NCBI GenBank assembly: GCA_037442505.1
Contig: JBBIPZ010000007.1
Location: 3,758-67,757 of the forward strand
Source: Deltaproteobacteria bacterium
GTDB lineage: Bacteria > CALINM01
Direction of reading: 5' to 3'
DNA: 64,000 nucleotides
Translations under genes and position numbers: made by a program
Shown: in pieces, positions 5,162 to 50,762 of the stretch
How positions within the stretch are numbered: position 1 is the first letter of the stretch
How the letters are laid out: each line of letters opens with the position of its first letter
The notes under the pieces: generated by a model
What the model saw: the letters and a program-made list of their open reading frames with translations, nothing else
What the model was told of the DNA's origin: nothing
The model's database searches: none

Positions 5162-5220
5162 AAAATCATTTAAAATGATTTTGAAAGCCTTTGCAAGGTT
5201 TTGCAAAGGCTTTATTTTTA
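5162..5220. terminator. Bidirectional intrinsic terminator between convergent clpB and cysE
   Basis: Perfect 13-bp inverted repeat AAAGCCTTTGCAA-ggtt-TTGCAAAGGCTTT followed by a T-run. A second AT-rich hairpin sits just upstream. Confidence 0.5.
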
Positions 5221-5910
5221 TTCTTTTTTGCCAGGTTCAGTTCTATCGAATGAACAGGTTGTAAACTCTTTGTGTTCCTTGGTGAGTTCTATAAGTCTTG
5301 TCTCTATGTCTCTAAGTTGATCCATCAGGCATTGCAGCACCTGTGCCTCTGGATCTGGCAACTTCTCGTCAACTTTAACACGAGCTTTTCCGCGATATGT
5401 AATTCTACCTGGCACACCAACCACAGTTGAATCATCTGGAACATCTTTAACAACAACAGAGCCCGAACCAATCAGGCAGTTGTTCCCAATCACTATTGGT
5501 CCTAAAACTTTTGCGCCCGCGCCTATAACCACATTATTACCAATGGTAGGATGTCTTTTACCCTTTTTCCATGATGTACCACCTAAAGTTACCCCATGAT
5601 AAAGTGTGACGTCGTCGCCTACTTCTGCTGTTTCTCCAATCACCACACCCATACCGTGATCAATGAAAAACCTTTTGCCAATCTTTGCTCCGGGATGTAT
5701 CTCAATTCCTGTTAGAAATCGAGCGATGTGAGAGAGAAATCTTGCTAAAAGTCTGAAATTTTTTCCCCACAAATAGTGGTTAACTCTATGAAAAAGTAGT
5801 GCGTGAAAGCCCGGGTAACATAGAATAATCTCAATTACACTTCTTGCAGCCGGGTCTCTTTCAAAAACCGAGTTGATGTCCTCTTTAATAGTTTTCAAAA
5901 ATTTGAACAT
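5218..5910 (-). CDS. cysE: Serine O-acetyltransferase
   Basis: SATase N-terminal helical domain followed by a hexapeptide-repeat left-handed beta-helix ([38 protein letters not shown]). Confidence 0.85.
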
Positions 5911-5918
5911 AATATTAG

Positions 5919-7559
5919 CTAAAATTTGATTGGGAAAATTATCCCAACCTCCGTTCCAATATCTTTTTTACTTTTATAATACACCTTTGCGTTATGAAAT
6001 ACAACCACACGTTTAAGAATATTCAAGCCAAGAGTAATAAAATCACCTTTCAGGTTAGTTTCAAAATTGTCTTTTGTTAGATAATTATTTATAGCATTAA
6101 GGACATTTTGTGGCATTCCACTGCCAGTATCTATAATACGTAAAACAGCATTTTTATCTTCCATTGATAGAACTAACATAATTTCGCCTTTATCAGGTGT
6201 GTATTTAATTGCGTTCCTTATAAGATGGAGAAAAGTTTGTGAAAGCATCAACTGTTCCCCTTTTATTACTATCGAAAAATTGGGTATATTCAGGTTAACT
6301 TTAATTTTCTTTTCGTCCAGCTCTTTTTCCACACGGCCGATAATGTTTTTAATAAGGTAAGTAAGGTCAATATCTCTTAGCATATAACGATCTTTTTCAA
6401 GGTTTAGACGTGCTAAAAATATTAAATCTTCGATAGTATTGTAAAGTTTTTCGGCACAAGTAAGCATTATGTCTATGCTCTGCTCTTGAAGAGGGGTTAG
6501 CTCTCCTAACTCCTTGTTTTTAAAAAGCTTTAGATAGCCAAACAGCGGTGTCAATGGGGTCTTAAATTCATGTGAGATACTTTGTAAAAAGTTACTTTTC
6601 ATTCTATCCAGATCCTTTAGTTCTTCATAAGCCTTTTCAAGCTGTCTCGTTTTTTCTTCCACGCGCTTTTCTAAATCTCTTTTTGTATCTTCCAGCTCAG
6701 CTGTTAATAACTCTAACTGCTGATTAGAAGCCTGCAGTTCTTCGTTCATTCCTTTTATTTCTTCAAATTGTTGCTCCAATTCCTGTTCGTTTTCTTGTAA
6801 CTTTTTAAGTGTTTCACTTATTATCTCGCCCAACATTCGCATTTCGCTACTCTTAAAGTCTCTAACTTCTACGTCATCAATGATGTTATTTTCCTCATAG
6901 TCTTTGCAAAGCCTGGATAGTTTAAAAAAGTCTTTCAAAAAGTTTTTATATAGTATGGTGGCAATAGTTATAATAAAAATTAAGGCTACCAATGAATAAA
7001 ATGAATAAAACAGAGGAAATATTGTAACTTTTTTGAGTAAATTATCGTGATAACTGCTTTCCATTCTTTTTAATGCATCCCGCACCGTTTGTGATAAACG
7101 CTCATAGTCAATTTTCTCATTCAGTATCTCCTGCGCTTTTGTTTCGTCATAAAGGTATTGAAAACTTAGCTTTAAAATATTATCGTTTTTAATCAGCATC
7201 TTTTCTAATGTTTCACTTAAAGTTTTTATGTTTGAGTCGCCTCTTTTATGACAATCGATACATCCATAATATTCAAATTTTTCATTAAAAACATTACGCA
7301 TGTCTTCGATTTTTTTTCGAACATCATCAAGATTCAATTCAACGGGAGTCTTCGATAACAATTTTTTCTGTATGAAAAGAGAATTTACCTGTCTATCTAT
7401 AATTATTGTGAGCTGATACAGTTGTTCTTCAAGCAACAGCAAGTCTTCATGTATTTTTAAAAATGATCTTGTTTCCTTGTAAAGTTTTATAGAAAAGAAA
7501 ACACCTGATAAAAAGAAAATACAGCAAAAAAACGTAACCCACAGAAAAGATTTCTTCAT
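5919..7559 (-). CDS. Sensor histidine kinase with a periplasmic domain carrying a CXXCH motif
   Basis: TM helix at aa 6-24, periplasmic stretch to about aa 180 containing GCIDCH (aa 99-104, nt 7245-7262), a second TM helix, a coiled coil, HisKA (SHEFKTPL) and HATPase (DTGSGMP). Confidence 0.85.
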
Positions 7560-7599
7560 TTAGCGATATTATATCATTAATTATTAGAAAGGTTAAAGA

Positions 7600-7628
7600 G
7601 AAAAAGGGCTTTTTCAAGCCCTTTTCAA
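7600..7628 (-). terminator. Hairpin terminator after the permease gene
   Basis: AAAAGGGC-tttttcaa-GCCCTTTT stem-loop flanked by A/T runs. Confidence 0.4.
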
Positions 7629-7631
7629 ATG

Positions 7632-8954
7632 TTATTTAAAAAACACGAAAGTTATCAAAATAAATAGAGGTATCAAAATACCGCAAGACCATGCCATATA
7701 GCCAAAAAATGAAGGCATTTTTATATCATTTTCTTCACAGATTGCCTTTACCATAAAGTTAGGTCCATTGCCAATATAAGTATTTGCACCCATAAAAACC
7801 GCACCCACAGAGACAGCGCGTAAATAAATTTCCGGTATACCAATAATCAAATTATCAACAATGCCTTTATACTGCGCCACACTTTGGGCAGTAGTGGCAA
7901 AGACTAAATAAGTTGGTGCGTTGTCAAGAAAGCTTGATAGGATACCAGTAGCCCAGTAGAATTGCCATGGCTCTGTTACACCCAATTTACTTCCGTTAAC
8001 TTGTAACATTTGCATAACAGGCACCATAGTTACAAAAATGCCGAAAAAGAGAATTGCCACTTCAATAATTGGATGGTAGGTAAATGCATTTTCTTCTCTT
8101 AAAGCTACAGGTGTAAAATAAATTGATGCTAATGCAGAGGCAATCATCATTGCTTCTCTTATAATGGGAGGAACGAAAAATGATACAATTACAATGAGTA
8201 AAAATAGAAAGTTGAGCTTACCCCTGATCTCAAGTTTTTTTTCGGGCAGCTCACCTAACGTTTCGGCTAATTTAGTTCTGTCTTCCTTTTTGATGAAATG
8301 GTTATCTAACAGAAAAAATATAAAAAGAAGTATTCCCACTGCAAAAAGCCAGAAAATAACTAGTTTAAATGTCCAGAAAAAGGGAACTCCTCTTAAAAAA
8401 CCAAGAAATAGTGGGGGATCTCCAAGTGGCGTTAATACTCCACCTATGTTAGATACCAAAAAAATAAAGAAAACACATAGGTGTACAATATGTTTACGCC
8501 ATTTGTTGATACGTAAGATTGGACGTATCAAAACCATGCTTGCACCTGTCGTTCCGATAAAACTGGCAAAAAAGGCTCCGATAAAAAGTAATAGCGTATT
8601 AATTTTAGGTGCACCGTTTGATCCTATTCTAATAACTATACCACCAGAAATTATAAAGAGAGAGCCCAGTAAGATGATAAAGGATATATATTCACTTAAA
8701 GAGTGTATCAACAACATTTTTTCTTTTGAAATAATCAAAATAGCCGCTGGAATTGCAAGCAATAAAGAAACTAATCCGTAACGTTTACCCCACCACTCAG
8801 CGTTTATCAGGGGGAAAACTGCTATTGCGAGTAATAGAGCAACAAAGAAAATCCCGCTCCAGATAGGAAAATCAACATTATGAGCTTCTGAATGTTCCGA
8901 AGCAAAGGCAAGCACAGGAGTAAACACACTAAATAATAAAAGCATCTTTTTCAT
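7632..8954 (-). CDS. ArsB/NhaD-superfamily (ion transporter) permease with signal peptide
   Basis: 440 aa polytopic membrane protein whose two halves look related. The family call rests on overall resemblance only. Confidence 0.45.
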   Translation of the reverse strand: MKKMLLLFSVFTPVLAFASEHSEAHNVDFPIWSGIFFVALLLAIAVFPLINAEWWGKRYGLVSLLLAIPAAILIISKEKMLLIHSLSEYISFIILLGSLFIISGGIVIRIGSNGAPKINTLLLFIGAFFASFIGTTGASMVLIRPILRINKWRKHIVHLCVFFIFLVSNIGGVLTPLGDPPLFLGFLRGVPFFWTFKLVIFWLFAVGILLFIFFLLDNHFIKKEDRTKLAETLGELPEKKLEIRGKLNFLFLLIVIVSFFVPPIIREAMMIASALASIYFTPVALREENAFTYHPIIEVAILFFGIFVTMVPVMQMLQVNGSKLGVTEPWQFYWATGILSSFLDNAPTYLVFATTAQSVAQYKGIVDNLIIGIPEIYLRAVSVGAVFMGANTYIGNGPNFMVKAICEENDIKMPSFFGYMAWSCGILIPLFILITFVFFK

Positions 8955-12429: not shown

Positions 12430-12454
12430 AATTCAAATTATAAAGGATTCGCAA

Positions 12455-21668: not shown

Positions 21669-23513
21669 ATGATGGCAAAAGGAACGCACAAGATTCTTTA
21701 TCTTGGTGCAGATGATGTTTTTTTTAAAGAGCTTCAAGATATTTTTGTAAGTGAACCTGTTTTTTTGGAACATTTTTTAAGAGAGAGTCTTTCTTTTGCT
21801 ATCCTGCCACAAAAGGATTACTCTGTCATAATCGTTGACGCAGATTATAAAACCCCACTCACCTTTATAGAAACGCTTAGAGTGATATACAAAGATTTCT
21901 TTAAACCTTACATAATGCTTCTTGCTAAATTGGAACAGGTAAAATCTCTAAAAAATTTGATAAACTTTAAAAACTATCCTGATGATATCTGCCTTAAAAA
22001 CATCGATAAAAAATGTATTGCAAACCAGATACTTTTTGGTTGTTCGAGTTCTATATGCACAAAAGATGCTTTATGTAGCGCTGGGGAAATACAAAAAGGC
22101 GATTTTAAAGATTTATCTTATGGTAGTTTGTTGTTCAAGCTTTATAAGGAAAAATTTACTGGGAGACTGATAATAGACAGCTTTTCTGATAGGGCTGTTT
22201 TTTCATTTTTAAATGGGGAGCCTGTTGATATTAAATTCAACAGGATACTATTTACATTGGGAAGGATATTGCTAAGGCGTGGCCTTTTAGATGAAGAGAC
22301 ATATTTAAAATCTATGGAGTATATGAATGAAAAAAATATTAGGCATGGCGATGCATTGGTTGAGATGGGTATACTTTCAACATCAACAATAGTTGATATG
22401 ATTGAAGAGCAGTATAAAGAAAAATTGATGTTTTTCTTCTCAAAATTTAATGGCAATTTTTTGCTTGTCCAGAGTGATGTTGAGTTTACTATTCACCCGA
22501 AAGTGGACGTCTTTAATCTAATTTATGCAGGCGTAATGCAGTATTGTTCTGCTAAATATCTTACAGAGAAGTTTTTACTATATAAAAATAAATTCGTTGC
22601 ATTAACTGAAAACTTTACACTCTTTAATAAAAAACTCCCATTTACGGAGAATGAGCATCTACTGTTATCAAGATTAGAGTCTGCACCAGAATTGATAGAA
22701 GTTTTTGAAAGCACGTCACTCGATTTAACTCATATTTTAAAACTTTTCGAGATAATCACAATTTGTGAGATGGCAAAATTTGCTGATACTAAAGCAGATG
22801 CATTGGAGATTACTAAATGGACACAGCCAAAGATGATAGAATTAAAAAATAAGATTAATGCTGATTATATGAGTCTTAAAGAAAAAAACTATTATGAAGT
22901 GTTAGGATTAAAACAGGATTGTGATAACTCGGAGATAAAAAAACGTTACTTTGAGAAGGTGAAAAATTACCATCCTGATACTTACAATCATTTGGGATTG
23001 GACAAGGATTTGATGTCTAAGGTAAATGAAATGTTCCAGTTGATACAGATAGCTTATCAAACTCTCTCAAATCAAGAATCAAGAAAAAATTATGATGCTA
23101 TAATATCTTCAACTTTTGTGAACGAAGCGATGAAGAAGAGTAGTGACATTATCAATGCAGAGATTGCATTTAAAAAAGGAGAGTTCTTATTTAAGAAAAG
23201 AAATTATAAGGATGCAGAAGGCTACTTTAGAACAGCTGTAAATCTTTATTGGAAAGAACCAGAATATCTAATTAGCCTTGCTGTTACCCTGATGTTTATT
23301 GATAATAAAAAAATAGAAAAGCTGGAAGAAGCGAAATCTCTGCTCGAAAAGGCTATTTATATTAACCCTTATTATGACAAGTCTTATCATTATCTTGGTA
23401 TTTTTTATAAACTTACCGGAAATACAGCTGAGGCAAAGGCTTGCTTAAAAAAGGCGGTTGAGCTAAACCCTTCAAACAAAGAAGCGATCATGGAGTTAAA
23501 AAGCCTTGAGTAG
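21669..23513 (+). CDS. Multi-domain protein with a degenerate receiver-like N-terminus, a DUF4388-like domain, a J domain and C-terminal TPR repeats
   Basis: KILYLGADD...VIIVDADYKT (REC-like), LLFKLYKEKFTGRLII...NGEPVDI (DUF4388-like), YYEVLGL...KKRYF...HPD (J domain with HPD), TPR-like C-terminus. Sits between bioB and bioF. Confidence 0.6.
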   Translation: MMAKGTHKILYLGADDVFFKELQDIFVSEPVFLEHFLRESLSFAILPQKDYSVIIVDADYKTPLTFIETLRVIYKDFFKPYIMLLAKLEQVKSLKNLINFKNYPDDICLKNIDKKCIANQILFGCSSSICTKDALCSAGEIQKGDFKDLSYGSLLFKLYKEKFTGRLIIDSFSDRAVFSFLNGEPVDIKFNRILFTLGRILLRRGLLDEETYLKSMEYMNEKNIRHGDALVEMGILSTSTIVDMIEEQYKEKLMFFFSKFNGNFLLVQSDVEFTIHPKVDVFNLIYAGVMQYCSAKYLTEKFLLYKNKFVALTENFTLFNKKLPFTENEHLLLSRLESAPELIEVFESTSLDLTHILKLFEIITICEMAKFADTKADALEITKWTQPKMIELKNKINADYMSLKEKNYYEVLGLKQDCDNSEIKKRYFEKVKNYHPDTYNHLGLDKDLMSKVNEMFQLIQIAYQTLSNQESRKNYDAIISSTFVNEAMKKSSDIINAEIAFKKGEFLFKKRNYKDAEGYFRTAVNLYWKEPEYLISLAVTLMFIDNKKIEKLEEAKSLLEKAIYINPYYDKSYHYLGIFYKLTGNTAEAKACLKKAVELNPSNKEAIMELKSLE

Positions 23514-26762: not shown

Positions 26763-27971
26763 ATGCATCTGGTAATAATTGGTTTAAGTGCCGCAGGTCT
26801 TACTGCTTTGGATACACTTGTAAAACATGCTAAGGACTGTAAAATAACAGTAGTTACAGAAGAACGATATGAACCATATTCACGCTGTCTTCTAACTAAC
26901 TATCTTGGCACAGAAATTGGACTTGGTAACCTTTTTATTTCTAACTCATCATTGTATCCTGCTAATGTAAAATGTATTTTTGGTAAAAAAGTAGTTAGTA
27001 TTGATAAAGATTCTAAAAAGCTGATACTGGGCGATGGTAGTTTTATTTTTTACGATAAGTTATTACTTGCTACTGGTGCTGAACCCATTAAACCAGCTTA
27101 TGCACTTAAAGCTAAAAGAGTGTTTACGTTAAGACGCATTCAGGATGTTAGCAAAATTTGCGAAAAACTCAACGATAAGGCGATAGTATTGGGTGGTGGA
27201 TTTGTAGGGATAAAAACCGCTTATGGGTTGCTTGAAAGGGATGTTAGGGTAAATCTTGTTATTTCATCTGCATATCCGTTATCAATGATACTTGATGAAG
27301 AATTGGGAAAGATTGTCGAAAGAGAGTTAAAGGATCTTGGAATATCGGTGTTTACAAATAGCGATGTTGTTGAAATTGCAAAAAAGCCCAATGGCATTTA
27401 TGCTGTTTTATCGTCAAACAAAACATTAGAGAGCGATGTGGTCATTGTGGGAAAAGGCGTCACGCCAAGAATAGAACTTGCAGAATCTGCTGGTGTTGCG
27501 ATTAATAAAGGAATCCTTGTAAACAGCTTTTTAGAGACATCAGTAAAAGATATCTTTGCTGCAGGGGATTGTGTTGAGGCATATGATATCACAAGGAAAG
27601 ATAATTTTATTAACGCAATCTGGCCAAATGCTGTAGAACAGGGCTATTATGCCGCAATGAATATGTTAGGTAACTGCTTGAGTTATTCAGGCAGCATAGG
27701 TTGTAACAGTTTAAAGACTAAAACGTTTCATTTAATTACTGCAGGGATTCTAAAAGGTAAGGATGTAAAGACATATAGACATTATGTGGCATCAAAAAAA
27801 CAGCTTCGTGAAGTTGCTTTTATTGATGACATACCAGTAGGAATGGCATTTTTAAATTCATTTGAAGACGCAGGTGTGCTAGTTAATTTGATTAAAAGGG
27901 GAGAGCCTATCAATTGTTTTCCCGAACAGTTAGTTAACGGAGAATATAATTTACTGCAAAACTTATTTTAG
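26763..27971 (+). CDS. FAD-dependent pyridine nucleotide-disulfide-family NAD(P)H oxidoreductase
   Basis: Two Rossmann dinucleotide motifs (VIIGLSAAG; VLGGGFVG) and a possible redox Cys (YSRC). Confidence 0.7.
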   Translation: MHLVIIGLSAAGLTALDTLVKHAKDCKITVVTEERYEPYSRCLLTNYLGTEIGLGNLFISNSSLYPANVKCIFGKKVVSIDKDSKKLILGDGSFIFYDKLLLATGAEPIKPAYALKAKRVFTLRRIQDVSKICEKLNDKAIVLGGGFVGIKTAYGLLERDVRVNLVISSAYPLSMILDEELGKIVERELKDLGISVFTNSDVVEIAKKPNGIYAVLSSNKTLESDVVIVGKGVTPRIELAESAGVAINKGILVNSFLETSVKDIFAAGDCVEAYDITRKDNFINAIWPNAVEQGYYAAMNMLGNCLSYSGSIGCNSLKTKTFHLITAGILKGKDVKTYRHYVASKKQLREVAFIDDIPVGMAFLNSFEDAGVLVNLIKRGEPINCFPEQLVNGEYNLLQNLF

Positions 27972-27973
27972 AG

Positions 27974-28582
27974 GTGATTTTTATGAAAACAGTTATAGTT
28001 AAACCCGAACGTTGTTTAGGTTGTTTGCAGTGCAGATTTGCATGTGCAGTGGCACATTCAAGGTCGAAGGATAGCTACACAGCTATCCGAGAAACACCTT
28101 TATCAAAACCAAGAATTCATATCGGACTTTTTAAAAACGCATCTCCCTTCCCAAACAAGTGTCGTCATTGTGATCCGGCACCATGTGAGAGGGCTTGTAT
28201 AACAAGGGCAATTTATCGTAACGAAGAGAAAAATATTGTCCTTATAGATCCTACACGCTGTATCAATTGTGGTATGTGTGCAATGGCATGCCCATTTGGT
28301 GTTGTGAGGTATCATGTCCAATTTAACAACAAGCTTGCTGCGCATAAGTGTGATCAATGTATTTTGAGACAAAGCGAAGGAAATGTGCCAGCTTGTGTAG
28401 AATCCTGCAAGGTAGGAGCGCTCGTATTTGGTGAAATTAATCATGAAATGGATAAAGAAACTGCTAAAGTTGCAGAACTTGTATGGTTAGGCATCCGTGA
28501 TAAAACTGAAAAAAGTGATGATGGCTTTAACACTTTAAAAGATTATAAAGCAAAATTAATTGAGATTGCCAGAAGGAGGTAG
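27974..28582 (+). CDS. CooF-like polyferredoxin (several 4Fe-4S clusters)
   Basis: Repeated CxxCxxC...CP motifs (CLGCLQCRFAC; CRHCDPAPC; CINCGMCAMACP; CDQC...C). Confidence 0.7.
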   Translation: MIFMKTVIVKPERCLGCLQCRFACAVAHSRSKDSYTAIRETPLSKPRIHIGLFKNASPFPNKCRHCDPAPCERACITRAIYRNEEKNIVLIDPTRCINCGMCAMACPFGVVRYHVQFNNKLAAHKCDQCILRQSEGNVPACVESCKVGALVFGEINHEMDKETAKVAELVWLGIRDKTEKSDDGFNTLKDYKAKLIEIARRR

Positions 28583-28587
28583 AGCAC

Positions 28588-30456
28588 ATGAAAGACTATA
28601 AAGATTACAGTATATGTAGTGATGCTCAACTGATGCTTAAAAAGGCAGAAACGGATAATGTAGAAACAGTCTGGGACAGACACAAAAAACAACAACCTCA
28701 TTGTGGATATTGTGAATTGGGGCTTTCTTGTAGAATATGTGCTATGGGACCGTGTAGAATTGACCCTTTTGGCGAAGGTCCACAAAAAGGTGTCTGTGGT
28801 GCAGATGCTGATATAATGGTTTCAAGAAACCTTGCGAGGATGATAGCTGCGGGTTCGGCATCTCATTCTGACCATGGAAGAGATCTTGTAGAAGTGTTAT
28901 ATAAAATTGGTGAAGGTAAGACTTCAGGTTATACAATTAAAGACGCCCAAAAGTTGAAAACGGTAGCTAAAGAGTATGGCATTGACGTGTCTGGTAAAGA
29001 TGAAAAAAGTATTGCAAAAGAATTGGCGTTAGCAATGATGGAAGATTATGGGATGAAGAAAGAAGCGATTACTTTTATTTCGAGAGCTCCTGCGAAGAGG
29101 GTAGAACTCTGGAGAAAATTACGCGTTCTTCCGAGGGGAATAGATAGGGAAACATCTGAAATGATGCATCGAACACATATGGGGGTGGATAATGATTATG
29201 TGTCTATCCTTTTACAGGCAGTGAGAAATAGTCTTTCTGATGGATATGGCGGTTCAATGATAGGAACAGAAGTTTCTGATATCATTTTTGGTACTCCCAG
29301 ACCCGCTTTTTCTTCTGTAAATTTGGGCGTGCTAAAAGAAGATATGGTTAATATACTTGTCCATGGACATAATCCCGTTGTTTCAGAGATGGTTTTTCTT
29401 GCTGTTAACGACCCTGCTATGATTGATGAAGCAAAGAAGGTAGGTGCAAATGGTATTAATCTTGCTGGACTTTGTTGTACAGGCAACGAATTAATGATGA
29501 GAAAGCAGGTGCCGATGGCTGGTAATCATTTGATGACGGAGCTAACAATGGTTACAGGTGTTGTTGAGGCAATAATTGTTGACTATCAATGTATAATGCC
29601 AGCACTTGGAGATGTTGCAAAGTGTTATCACACAAAGCTCTTTTCTACATCTGATAAAGCTAAATTTCCTTTTATGGAACATATTGAGTTTAATCCTGAA
29701 AATGCAAAAGAACAGGCTTATAAAATTGTTAGCATTGCTATACAAAACTTTAAAAATAGACGAAAAGATCGCATTAACATACCTGTTAGTCCTGTAAAAT
29801 CAATGACTGGTTTTTCAGTAGAGTCTATCGTAGAGGCTTTGGGTGGTTCTTTAACACCGTTGATAGAAGCAATCAAAGCAGGCAAGATTAAAGGGGCAGT
29901 TGGTGTAGTTGGTTGTAACAATCCAAAAGTGAAACAGGACTATGGGCATGTTGAGCTTATTAAGAAACTGATTGCAAATGATATTCTTGTTTTGACAACT
30001 GGTTGTGCAAATGTCGCAGCAGGCAAGGCAGGATTACAGTTGCCAGAGGCTAAAGAAATAGCTGGATCAGGTTTAAAAGAAATATGTGGTGCACTGGGAA
30101 TCCCCCCTTCTTTACACGTTGGTTCTTGTGTAGATAATTCTCGTATTCTTGTTATAGCATGTGCATTGGCAAATGCCTTAGGTGTTGATGTCTCTGATCT
30201 GCCGCTTGCTGGTGCTGCTCCAGAGTGGTATTCAGAGAAGGCTGTGGCGATAGGTTTTTATGTGATGGCTACTGGAATATTTACAGTTTTAGGAGTAATG
30301 CCGCCAATACTTGGCAGTAAAAATATTACTAATCTTGCTATCAATGGACTAAAGGATGTTTTTGGAGCAGCATTTGCTGTTGAGCCAGACCCATTGAAAG
30401 CTGCGGATTTAATTATTGAACATATAAACCAGAAAAGGAAAAAGTTAGGAATCTAA
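28588..30456 (+). CDS. cooS: Anaerobic Ni-dependent carbon monoxide dehydrogenase catalytic subunit
   Basis: 622 aa. N-terminal [20 protein letters not shown] cluster-D/B motif; C-cluster ligand motifs GVVGCNN and [10 protein letters not shown]. Not the shorter hybrid-cluster protein. Confidence 0.85.
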
Positions 30457-31156: not shown

Positions 31157-32383
31157 TTGATGCGATATTTAAAAGTGCTAAGTATTTTCTTTTGTGCTTT
31201 TATGGTAGTTGGTTGTGTGAGTTCAGGCACATATAAGGCTTGTTTATCCGATGTTGATGCCCTAAAAGGTGACAAAGCGAAGTTAGAGGATTTACTAAAA
31301 ACGAAAGACGCACAGTTGGAAGCATTGAGGGCTGAAAAGTCAAAATTAGAGGTAGATATTGCCGATAAATATAAGCAGAATAATCTACTTAAAGAAAAGA
31401 TAACCAATTTAGAAAAAGATATAAAAAATAAGGAAACTGAAAAAAAGGCTCTCGAAGAAAAAAATGCTAAACTTGAAAAAGATTACAATGAGTTGGTTAC
31501 AGAAAACTCTGACTTAAGAAAAACGTTATCTTCAAGCAAAGATGAGCTTACAAAAAATGTGTCGGAGCTTCAAACTAAGCTAAAAGAGAGAGAATCAAGA
31601 GTTTCTTTGTTAGAAGAGGATGTGCTCACTAAGAGCGGACAGATCGCAACGTTAAAGGATGAAATCAGAAAGAATAAAGAACAGATAACCGCATTGGTAG
31701 CAAGTATTAAGGAAAAAGAGGAACAAAAATCTTCTTTAGAAAAACAACTTCTTGAAAAAGACGAGCAGATAAAAAAAATGGAAAAAGATCTGGCTTCAAA
31801 AGATATTATGATAAATGACCTAAAAAATGAGATAAAAGCCCTTTCAACAGATAGAGCTAAAGTATTGGAGGAAAAAGAAAGGGCAATAGCTGAGCTTAAA
31901 AAGACTCACGACAAATTAATTGTAGAACTAAGCGAAGAGATTAAAAAAGGTGAAATAGAGGTTACTCAGTTGCGAGACAAACTCACTTTACAGATGGTTG
32001 AAAAAATTCTTTTTGATTCTGGCAGCGCAGAAATAAAAGGTAGTGGCAAAAAGGTGCTTGACCGTGTTGCAGAAATTTTGAAAAAGGTTAACGATAGACA
32101 GATCAGGATAGAAGGACACACAGACAACAAACCCATTGGCGCTAAGATTGCAAAGAAGTTTCCAACAAACTGGGAGCTTTCTACCGCAAGGGCCACAAAT
32201 GTGGTGAGATATCTTAAAGAAAAAGGTGGTATTGATCCCAGATACTTGAGTGCAGCTGGGTATGCGGAGTATAAACCAGTTGATACTAATGATACTGAAG
32301 AAGGTAGGGCTAAAAATAGAAGAATAGAAATCGTTCTGATACCCATTGAGTTAGAGACAACCAAGGTAATGACGACAAAATAG
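31157..32383 (+). CDS. Lipoprotein with a long coiled-coil stalk and a C-terminal OmpA/MotB peptidoglycan-binding domain
   Basis: Lipobox VVGC, about 250 aa of heptad-rich KE-rich sequence, and OmpA_C motifs (GHTDN...NWELSTARA...NRRIEI). Confidence 0.75.
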   Translation: MMRYLKVLSIFFCAFMVVGCVSSGTYKACLSDVDALKGDKAKLEDLLKTKDAQLEALRAEKSKLEVDIADKYKQNNLLKEKITNLEKDIKNKETEKKALEEKNAKLEKDYNELVTENSDLRKTLSSSKDELTKNVSELQTKLKERESRVSLLEEDVLTKSGQIATLKDEIRKNKEQITALVASIKEKEEQKSSLEKQLLEKDEQIKKMEKDLASKDIMINDLKNEIKALSTDRAKVLEEKERAIAELKKTHDKLIVELSEEIKKGEIEVTQLRDKLTLQMVEKILFDSGSAEIKGSGKKVLDRVAEILKKVNDRQIRIEGHTDNKPIGAKIAKKFPTNWELSTARATNVVRYLKEKGGIDPRYLSAAGYAEYKPVDTNDTEEGRAKNRRIEIVLIPIELETTKVMTTK

Positions 32384-49181: not shown

Positions 49182-50762
49182 ATGAAAAGGTTATTTTTAA
49201 TGTTGGTTCTTATACTTTTATTCTTTACCAACCATACCTCAGCAGCTAAGAAAATAGAAAAGGGAACTGCAGACAGCAAAGCTTGTTATCAGTGTCACGA
49301 TGAGATTAAGGCACTCAAAGAAGGTTCTAAACACGCGAAATTGGATTGTGGTCAATGTCACGGAAACTTATCTGAACACTTAGGGAATCCTGATACAAAA
49401 CCTTCAACAAATCTGGGACTTGATAACTGCGGCAGATGTCACAAAGACCAGTACGATTCATACTTTCAGGTAAATTATCATAAAAGAGCTAAGAAGGAAA
49501 AGGCAATCCCTGATGGTAGAGCACCACTGCTTGATAAGCTTCTTGCCGGTCATGGTTTTACAAAGGAGCATGCAGAGCCCAGAAGCCATCCCTTTATGTT
49601 AATTGACCATATCATTGTTGATAGAGCTTATGGTGGTAGATTCCAGTACAAAAACTGGGCTGATATAACAAAAACTGGTAAACCCTGGGATATCCTGATT
49701 GATACAAACAAGACAATTCCAGAATCTGCAAAAGCAGCAAATCCAACCTGCATTCAGTGCAAAACTTCTGATTTTGTAATGAAATGGGCATATTTAGGTG
49801 ATAAAAATCCAAAAGCAAAATGGGATAGAACATCAAATGTATTTGAAGTAATAAAGGATGCACAAAATCCAGTTGGTTGCATCCATTGTCATGATCCCCA
49901 TGCGGCAAAGGGAAGGGTAATAAGAGATGCCTTAATACGGGCGGTGCAAACATATGGAGATAGACCTTATAGTAAGAAAAATGACAAAAATGCTCTTGAT
50001 GTAAAAGAGTTCAGAGGCTATAGAAAGATTGGATTACTTAAGAAAAATGATTCAGTACTTATGTGTGCCCAGTGTCATGTGGAGTATGCCTGCAATCCTG
50101 GATTTGAGAAAGATGATTTTAACAAAAAGATAGGTTTTAATGACCAGAGAACCAATATATTCCCATGGAAGAATGTCTTTGATGTGCTTAAATTTTACGA
50201 TGAGATTAACTTTAGAGATTACAGACATCCAGTAACAGAGGCAAATCTGATTAAATTCCAACATCCTGAAACAGAGACGTTTTTTGACAGCAAACATGAA
50301 AGGGCAGGTGTAACCTGTGCTGATTGCCATATGGCAAAAACAAAAAATAAAGCTGGTAAAACTTATACATCACACTTTGTTGTAAGCCCGAGGGAAAATA
50401 TAAAAGGAACATGCCTCAAATGCCATAAAGACTGGACAGAGAAACAGGCAATATACACAATAGATAGCGTAAAAAACTATATAAAAGGAAAAATCAGAAA
50501 ATCTGAATACTGGTTGTCTCAGTTTATTGACAAGTTTGAAAAGGCAAAGAAGAAAGGTGTAAGCAAAGATGTGTTAAAAGAGGCAAGAAAACAGCATGAC
50601 ATAGCCCATGCTCACTGGGAATGGTGGACTGCAGAAAACTCCGATGGATTCCATAACCCTGACCAGGCAAGACAATCATTAGCAACATCTATCGAAGCTT
50701 CCAGGAAAGGAATAGAGATACTCGACAAGGCAATAAAGGAAAAGGTTATCACAGCCAAATAG
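49182..50762 (+). CDS. Octaheme cytochrome c nitrite reductase (TvNiR/ONR-like)
   Basis: Signal peptide. Eight heme motifs: CYQCH, CGQCH, CGRCH, CIQCK, CIHCH, CAQCH, CADCH, CLKCH. The fourth is a CXXCK, consistent with a Lys-ligated catalytic heme. SD GGGAGG. Confidence 0.8.
   Translation: MKRLFLMLVLILLFFTNHTSAAKKIEKGTADSKACYQCHDEIKALKEGSKHAKLDCGQCHGNLSEHLGNPDTKPSTNLGLDNCGRCHKDQYDSYFQVNYHKRAKKEKAIPDGRAPLLDKLLAGHGFTKEHAEPRSHPFMLIDHIIVDRAYGGRFQYKNWADITKTGKPWDILIDTNKTIPESAKAANPTCIQCKTSDFVMKWAYLGDKNPKAKWDRTSNVFEVIKDAQNPVGCIHCHDPHAAKGRVIRDALIRAVQTYGDRPYSKKNDKNALDVKEFRGYRKIGLLKKNDSVLMCAQCHVEYACNPGFEKDDFNKKIGFNDQRTNIFPWKNVFDVLKFYDEINFRDYRHPVTEANLIKFQHPETETFFDSKHERAGVTCADCHMAKTKNKAGKTYTSHFVVSPRENIKGTCLKCHKDWTEKQAIYTIDSVKNYIKGKIRKSEYWLSQFIDKFEKAKKKGVSKDVLKEARKQHDIAHAHWEWWTAENSDGFHNPDQARQSLATSIEASRKGIEILDKAIKEKVITAK

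Follow-up and report, generated by a model that had tools for sequence, protein, structure and literature searches.

An orphan histidine kinase paired with cysE and carrying a conserved periplasmic CXXCH motif on a predicted four-helix-bundle sensor domain

The 64,000-nucleotide stretch of contig JBBIPZ010000007.1 from a Deltaproteobacteria bacterium (hereafter the window, i.e. the whole stretch of DNA that was analysed) encodes a sensor histidine kinase (HK) of 546 amino acids (aa), immediately followed by cysE, which encodes the first enzyme of cysteine synthesis. Using a combination of methods (hydropathy, profile searches, structure prediction, promoter and terminator scans, and comparison of orthologous loci), we propose with moderate confidence that the ~154-aa periplasmic domain of this two-transmembrane (TM) kinase, a four-helix bundle of the NarQ/Tar type, acquired a single c-type heme, and that the kinase is expressed from its own promoter and coupled to cysE. 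The kinase is an orphan, in that no response regulator lies beside it at any of the loci examined. The attachment of heme to its CXXCH motif is a prediction made from sequence, and hemylation is the most likely reading of this motif. The features of the kinase are as follows.

5919-7559, (-) strand: HK gene, 546 aa; an open reading frame (ORF) with HisKA and HATPase_c domains and 12 distinct orthologues
7488-7547, (-) strand: TM helix 1 (TM1), aa 5-24, from Kyte-Doolittle hydropathy; lies within the continuous helix 2-67 of the AlphaFold model
7026-7487, (-) strand: periplasmic sensor domain, aa 25-178, a predicted four-helix bundle without a Pfam family
7248-7262, (-) strand: C100-I-D-C103-H104, candidate c-type heme attachment site with the proximal His, seen in the sequence and invariant in 12/12 orthologues
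7062-7064, (-) strand: Met166 on helix 4, candidate distal heme ligand, conserved in 11/12 orthologues
6945-7025, (-) strand: TM helix 2 (TM2), aa 179-205, from hydropathy; continuous with sensor helix 4 (model helix 141-214 or 141-224)
6603-6944, (-) strand: cytoplasmic linker, aa 206-319, comprising a helix, a connector and a long coiled coil, according to the secondary structure of a low-confidence full-length model
6402-6602, (-) strand: HisKA/DHp domain, aa 320-386 (Pfam PF00512, E = 3e-13)
6570-6572, (-) strand: phospho-acceptor His330 in the HisKA/DHp domain
5931-6254, (-) strand: HATPase_c catalytic domain, aa 436-543 (Pfam PF02518, E = 1.4e-13)

The protein has the characters of the HK class, i.e. 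an intact H-box (H330) and a HATPase_c domain with N and G boxes, GLNILK being present, and the coiled coil of its linker carries the invariant motif MNEELQxSNQQxE. Pfam gives no family for the first 215 residues, which hold both membrane-spanning segments. Hydropathy reveals exactly two of these segments (aa ~5-24 and ~179-205), and a Lys/Arg-rich stretch directly follows the second. Since there are only two TM helices, and since the ATP-dependent kinase core located after TM2 must be cytoplasmic, aa 25-178 are extracytoplasmic. The organism has an outer membrane, as indicated by the OmpA-family protein encoded at 31157-32383 of the window and by the LolA protein encoded in a relative, and therefore the extracytoplasmic side is the periplasm. 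The six cysteines of the kinase occur at positions 12 and 13 (in TM1), 100 and 103 (between the TM helices), and 218 and 368 (in the cytoplasm). Thus, C100-IDC103-H104 is the only cysteine pair of the periplasmic domain, as the original prediction had claimed. The coordinates then given for GCIDCH (7245-7262) were wrong by one codon (3 nt), the correct ones being 7248-7265. The periplasmic location also stood up, both hydropathy and the AlphaFold model placing the CXXCH between the only two TM helices, opposite the ATP-dependent kinase core and not in the cytoplasm. A CXXCH in an exported segment is a character of heme-c proteins, and this motif is invariant in 12/12 orthologues.

The conservation of the two cysteines and the histidine in homologs, on which the original prediction depended, was found in 12/12 distinct full-length orthologues, all of which have the CxxCH at position 98-100. 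The residues inside the motif vary from one orthologue to the other (ID, SN, IS, VG, FY, YK, SQ, QN, LY and IR), and a Gly precedes the first Cys in 10/12 sequences. It is worth noting that the mean pairwise identity of the 12 kinases is 28% for the sensor (minimum 12%), 51% for the linker, 85% for DHp and 60% for the catalytic domain. The only invariant periplasmic columns of the 154-column alignment are C100, C103, H104 and K149 (D108, M166 and E167 were additionally invariant with the first 8 sequences), and the chance that 4 randomly placed invariant columns of 154 include C100, C103 and H104 is ~7e-6. A scaffold that drifts fast while its cofactor motif stays fixed would be expected if a cofactor, not a shaped ligand pocket, does the sensing.

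The family is restricted to one anaerobic lineage that is small, uncultured and of low GC content (34.6%), and the kinase protein of the window has itself no record in the protein database. An exhaustive phmmer search with the sensor domain over 1.84 billion cluster representatives returned two 50%-cluster representatives only, namely P0001, an orthologue 68% identical in the sensor, and P0002, which is 25% identical. A word-index homologue search gave no match with the sensor domain and P0002 only with a 3-sequence profile; a scan of genome contigs with the whole kinase found only unrelated kinase cores (23-31% identity), and a metagenome scan with the sensor profile found no match. The family was enlarged through the CysE relatives of at least 75% identity, eight loci being sampled (CysE at least 80% identical in each), and through a metagenome scan with the full-length kinase alignment, which yielded five further loci, making 12 distinct full-length kinases overall. 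P0002 is a 210-aa sensor-only ORF (TM1, CXXCH bundle and TM2; locus L014, 3262-3894) with a stop right after TM2. The sequence located 3' of it does not resemble the full-length kinases at the same locus type (L018, L021 and L023), and the coverage of its contig is 3.4x. For these reasons, P0002 was dropped as proof of a stand-alone sensor protein; it is probably truncated or misassembled and, less probably, a stand-alone sensor form.

The sensor domain is predicted to be an all-alpha four-helix bundle, and not a PAS/Cache domain. The AlphaFold model of the sensor, based on the 3-sequence alignment (predicted local distance difference test score, pLDDT, 81.5), comprises the helices 2-67, 78-98, 109-135 and 141-214, which correspond to TM1, an up-down-up-down four-helix bundle and TM2, all helical and without strands. 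In this model, the CXXCH is in the 10-residue loop joining helices 2 and 3. The loop is the sole low-confidence part of the model (low pLDDT), as would be expected of a cofactor site in a model from which the cofactor is absent. With 21 and 27 residues, helices 2 and 3 do not reach the length of the portions of helices 1 and 4 that lie in the periplasm, and therefore the CXXCH loop would sit in the membrane-proximal half of the bundle, approximately level with residues 166-172 of helix 4, a position deduced from helix arithmetic and not from model coordinates. A Foldseek comparison was in line with a bundle of four helices, but not significant. Neither aa 25-178 nor three divergent orthologues matched any Pfam profile at E<=10. 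A sequence kinship to cytochromes was considered and rejected, in that a PDB profile search matched only the KGCxxCH of cytochrome c555 and NrfA; these matches, with a per-domain E of ~60 and inflated by the trimeric construct, are motif-level and do not indicate homology.

Concerning the supply of heme, cytochrome c maturation Systems I and II recognise little beyond an exported CXXCH. The window encodes a secreted NrfA-family cytochrome with seven CXXCH motifs (49182-50762, (+) strand), and related loci encode cytochrome c7-like proteins beside Psr-type molybdopterin reductases; therefore, the lineage probably has a cytochrome c maturation system. As to the ligands, Met166 is likely the best candidate for the distal position, as judged from the alignment. 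His37 and His171 were also considered as distal ligands and rejected, both being invariant with 3 sequences and replaced by Gln or Asn in several further orthologues. Periplasmic loops located between two TM helices are hemylated in GSU0582, GSU0935 and DcrA, and Met may be a switchable distal ligand in Geobacter heme-c sensors (PMC8396549, PMC3460858, PMC12889525).

By analogy with NarQ, Tar and the Met-switching Geobacter sensors, we propose the following signalling motion. Thioether bonds would hold the heme to Cys100 and Cys103, His104 being its proximal ligand and Met166 of helix 4 the distal one, and it would be seated in the loop between helices 2 and 3, which form a short hairpin, within the half of the bundle nearer to the membrane. 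A redox change, or a small ligand (sulfide, NO, CO or O2) taking the place of Met166, would alter the Met-Fe bond, thereby shifting helix 4, which is unbroken into TM2, as ligand binding does in NarQ/Tar. The resulting movement of TM2 would be relayed by the helix-connector-helix and the long coiled coil to DHp, where it would set the autophosphorylation of His330. In this scheme, the signal sensed would be a redox state or a small ligand.

The second half of our proposal deals with the association of the kinase with cysE, for which the relevant features are listed below.

5218-5910, (-) strand: cysE, serine O-acetyltransferase, 230 aa (TIGR01172; Hexapep and SATase_N domains)
Within 5218-5400, (-) strand: C-terminal motif of CysE, also found in the CysE genes of loci L013-L029
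5911-5918, (-) strand: 8-nt spacer between HK and cysE, with neither a terminator nor a Shine-Dalgarno sequence
7568-7596, (-) strand: promoter-like site, a TTAACC -35 element, a 17-nt spacer and TG-n-TATAAT, from a consensus scan (10/12 matches plus the TG extension)
7560-7596 and 12430-12450: TATAAT-like boxes close to a start codon without a Shine-Dalgarno sequence, the latter upstream of a DUF294/CBS gene
7601-7626, (-) strand: stem of the hairpin terminator of the upstream CitMHS_2 permease gene (-15 kcal/mol, z = -4.2 vs shuffles)
5184-5213: hairpin of 13 bp lying where the cysE and clpB genes converge, a candidate bidirectional terminator ending the operon, from the terminator scan
1-1219, (+) strand: Response_reg+PatA_N (DUF4388) gene truncated at the start of the window; its first 67 codons encode the end of the receiver domain

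The physical linkage of HK and cysE is solid. The cysE gene begins 8 nt downstream of the HK stop on the same strand, and a ~545-aa kinase was found directly upstream of cysE at 8/8 loci sampled from the CysE clade (CysE at least 80% identical). Overall, the HK-cysE gap ranges from -4 to +8 nt in 14 loci, which fall into three flanking contexts: CitMHS_2 upstream and a convergent clpB downstream; a divergent nitroreductase gene upstream and a co-directional NUDIX gene downstream; or a divergent transglutaminase-core gene upstream and clpB downstream. The original prediction had placed cysE 8 nt behind the kinase and deduced a co-transcription from it. The spacing was confirmed, and the co-transcription is supported by the maintenance of the pair, with its short gap, in the 14 loci and three sets of neighbours. 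A regulatory link of the kinase to cysteine synthesis is hypothetical.

The CysE protein scores 262.4 bits on TIGR01172, against a curated cut-off of 210.65, and thus belongs to this equivalog family. Like the TIGR01172 serine O-acetyltransferases, it is a short form with a hexapeptide left-handed beta-helix. Unlike canonical CysE, it is the second product of a two-gene unit that starts with a sensor kinase, it has a clade-specific ELTKEHxEFTxCS motif, and it has no C-terminal Ile. In canonical cysteine synthase complexes, the C-terminal Ile docks CysE into CysK. The motif ELTKEH(K/I)E(F/Y)T(S/T/A)C(S/P) is common to the C-termini of the HK-linked CysE proteins, whose last residues are charged and which lack the Ile; the motif occurs in 0/7 of the non-linked CysE relatives compared.

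Upstream of the window kinase, 8 nt separate the end of the -10 box from the ATG, and 8/8 orthologous loci examined have an extended -10 box (TGnTATAAT, or nearly so) 6-9 nt before the kinase start codon; none of these loci has a Shine-Dalgarno sequence before this start. The kinase mRNA is probably leaderless, as judged from this arrangement. An extended -10 promoter of its own would drive the kinase gene, to which cysE would be translationally coupled, and the cell would thereby make the sensor along with the enzyme that opens cysteine synthesis. A recognisable Shine-Dalgarno sequence is missing from 24 of the 52 ORFs of the window, and leaderless mRNAs, with a TATAAT-like box 6-9 nt from the start codon, are perhaps common in this organism. 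The presence of a hairpin terminator closing the upstream permease gene, which had also been predicted, was verified; it is located just after the stop (at 7632) of the CitMHS_2 gene (7632-8954), it occurs likewise in L013 and L016, and it insulates the HK promoter. At the other end of the unit, the 5184-5213 hairpin is likely the bidirectional terminator of cysE and clpB.

As previously claimed, there is no response regulator adjacent to HK-cysE, the nearest one being ~4 kb away beyond the convergent clpB, and none was found beside the kinase in the window or at any orthologous locus examined. This nearest gene, listed as the 203-1219 ORF, is open back to the window start and matches the 477-aa orthologues of L013, L015 and L016; it is near the kinase in only one of the three flanking contexts, and so does not travel with it. 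The DHp domains of the orthologues are 73-100% identical, and because of this high conservation they imply, as a sequence argument, that the kinase has a fixed partner regulator encoded elsewhere.

The CXXCH motif can be accounted for without a heme in two ways. According to the simpler one, the kinase is an ordinary ligand-binding four-helix-bundle sensor in which the motif arose by chance, and approximately one random CXXCH is indeed expected per genome-wide scan (an estimate from typical Cys and His frequencies). We find this hardly credible, since shuffling of the 154-aa periplasmic domain (2 Cys and 3 His) yields a CxxCH at P = 2e-4 only, and since a motif that is kept in all 12 orthologues, with a sensor identity down to 12%, is not a chance one; the conservation effectively refutes the chance reading. 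According to the other one, CxxCH and Met166 form, in the periplasm, a binding site for a metal (either Cu(I), Zn or Fe) or else a heme-free switch of the dithiol/disulfide type, and the kinase senses the metal or thiol-disulfide status, which might equally suit a tie to the supply of cysteine. Cys, His and Met are typical ligands of soft metals, there is little variation at Met166 and Glu167, the pairing with cysE is suggestive of thiol metabolism, and the sensor belongs to no cytochrome family by sequence, the PDB matches to c-type cytochromes being those of the motif described above. We nevertheless regard this explanation as rather unlikely, because a metal-binding or redox-active CxxC needs no His at the position that defines heme c, which is occupied by an invariant His (12/12), and because the Gly before the first Cys is found in many c-type cytochromes. 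Furthermore, in cells with c-type cytochrome maturation, Systems I and II take an exported CXXCH as their substrate, and the sensor domain has neither a thioredoxin-like nor a known metal-sensor fold.

Other explanations bear on the cysE pairing. The heme motif may be real and the pairing functionally meaningless, i.e. an operon hitch-hiking in which cysE merely borrows the promoter of the kinase, with the kinase controlling unrelated genes through a distant response regulator, and we give this proposal a chance not far short of even. In its favour, cysE is the only sulfur-assimilation gene at the locus, no response regulator travels with the pair, and all known instances come from one clade (CysE at least 80% identical); CysE relatives that are at most 71% identical were sampled at one locus, L024, where the gene of a CysE of 69% identity belongs to a cysE-Aminotran_5 (cysteine desulfurase-type)-mnmA arrangement that lacks a kinase. 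Against it, the pair outlasted at least two rearrangements of both flanks with its -4 to +8 nt spacing retained, the linked CysE proteins possess the clade-specific C-terminal motif and lack the usual Ile, and no alternative cysE promoter was evident in the scan. At the opposite extreme, the heme-c kinase and CysE could constitute a dedicated two-protein module, in which the heme would sense sulfide, polysulfide or the thiol redox state, as a product of the sulfur respiration of the lineage, and the signal would be coupled to the supply of O-acetylserine, either by autoregulation of the leaderless operon or by binding of the kinase to the C-terminal tail of CysE (a 'trigger enzyme'). We look upon this elaborate version as quite unlikely.

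Returning to the heme-bearing four-helix bundle that we prefer, the following points weigh against it. No ccm or ccs cytochrome c maturation gene was identified in the 64-kb window, and CxxC is a classic redox-active and metal-binding motif. The proximity of His104 and Met166 rests on the helix arithmetic. Met166 is not universal, Thr-His (NTHTH) standing in its place in L029 (92-1732), and Glu167 beside it is changed in L028 (3911-5551), which has Met-Val; these divergent orthologues hint that the distal ligand may differ within the family, with His instead of Met. The structure model of the full-length kinase is poor (pLDDT 56). There is no Pfam match to HAMP in the kinase even at E<=10, and this low-confidence model has a helix-connector-helix pattern only. 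The family is limited to one small lineage, so that its conservation is partly shared descent. Finally, co-transcription with cysE shows neither a cysteine-related regulation nor a cysteine-related sensing by the kinase.

The original prediction had likened the kinase to the heme-c PAS sensors, and this analogy holds for the function but not for the fold. The sCache_heme/DUF3365/Tll0287-like proteins (PF11845) comprise Geobacter GSU0582, GSU0935 and GSU0303, Thermosynechococcus Tll0287 and Desulfovibrio DcrA (PMC8396549, PMC3460858, PMC12889525). Similarly to the window kinase, they have a single periplasmic CXXCH between the two TM helices of a signalling protein (HK, methyl-accepting chemotaxis protein (MCP) or GGDEF protein), and their covalent heme was proposed or shown to sense redox, NO, CO or O2, a function that is only predicted for the window kinase. 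Their domains are alpha/beta and of the Cache (PAS-like) fold, an insertion that separates beta3 from beta4 carrying the CXXCH, whereas the window domain is predicted to be all-alpha and has no sequence similarity to theirs; in agreement, PF11845 gave no match in the window kinase at E<=10 and the predicted structure has no strands.

As regards the fold type, an up-down bundle between TM1 and TM2, the closest counterparts are the four-helix-bundle sensors NarX/NarQ, Tar/Tsr, Adeh_2942, LytS-N and QseE. The NarX/Tar-type sensors differ in being cofactor-free and in binding small ligands mostly at the membrane-distal dimer interface, and none of them has a CXXCH. In the window sensor, no sequence relationship to them, no P-box and no HAMP were detected, and the 4HB_MCP_1, TarH and NarX-type profiles matched neither aa 25-178 nor the three divergent orthologues at E<=10. 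The class II cytochromes c (cytochrome c' and c556) and cytochrome b562 are one-heme four-helix bundles, like the window domain as predicted, but they are soluble electron carriers or gas binders and not membrane kinases. In the class II cytochromes, helix 4 bears the CXXCH close to the C-terminus and helix 1 bears the Met, whereas the window protein has the CXXCH between helices 2 and 3 and the Met in helix 4; their Pfam families (PF01322 for class II cytochrome c and PF07361 for cytochrome b562) gave no match in the window kinase.

So far, the known periplasmic heme-c sensors are all built on a PAS-like/Cache scaffold (DcrA, the Geobacter MCPs, Tll0287 and the 2026 'sCache_heme' family). In the literature searched, subscription journals being outside its scope, we found no description of a four-helix-bundle heme-c sensor, of any other cofactor-bearing four-helix-bundle sensor, or of an HK-cysE operon. 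Consequently, if the heme attachment is true, it would represent an independent capture of a CXXCH by the second major extracytoplasmic sensor fold, and the kinase would be the first cofactor-bearing four-helix-bundle extracytoplasmic sensor. A heme on a loop beside the helix that enters the membrane would also make a simple system for studying how a heme ligand switch moves a TM helix. In addition, the strict pairing with cysE provides a testable hypothesis, namely that periplasmic redox or sulfide sensing is linked to cysteine synthesis in an uncultured anaerobic lineage.

Several other observations were made in the window and at the related loci. The protein with seven CXXCH motifs encoded at 49182-50762 has a match to the cytochrome c552/NrfA family, with a score far short of the NrfA equivalog cut-offs, and, on this sequence basis, is probably a multiheme relative rather than a classical pentaheme NrfA; just upstream of its gene lie an ABC transporter pair and a gene encoding a 292-aa protein. 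In L018, L021 and L022, the NUDIX gene follows HK-cysE on the same strand, and ~3 kb further is a Psr/Phs-like cluster encoding a 4Fe-4S protein, NrfD and a molybdopterin oxidoreductase, together with a cytochrome c7-like protein in L018 (a faint Pfam match). The gene content of this cluster is consistent with a lineage respiring sulfur compounds.

At 26763-30456, (+) strand, the window encodes a flavin adenine dinucleotide-type oxidoreductase-like ORF, a CooF-like polyferredoxin ORF and a protein of the Prismane/carbon-monoxide dehydrogenase (CODH) family (Pfam E = 7.7e-184). This cluster looks like a carbon-monoxide dehydrogenase module, the Pfam scan having covered the CODH-family protein only. 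Finally, the 614-aa protein encoded at 21669-23513, (+) strand, has an unusual architecture, as it joins PatA_N/DUF4388, a DnaJ domain and C-terminal TPR repeats.

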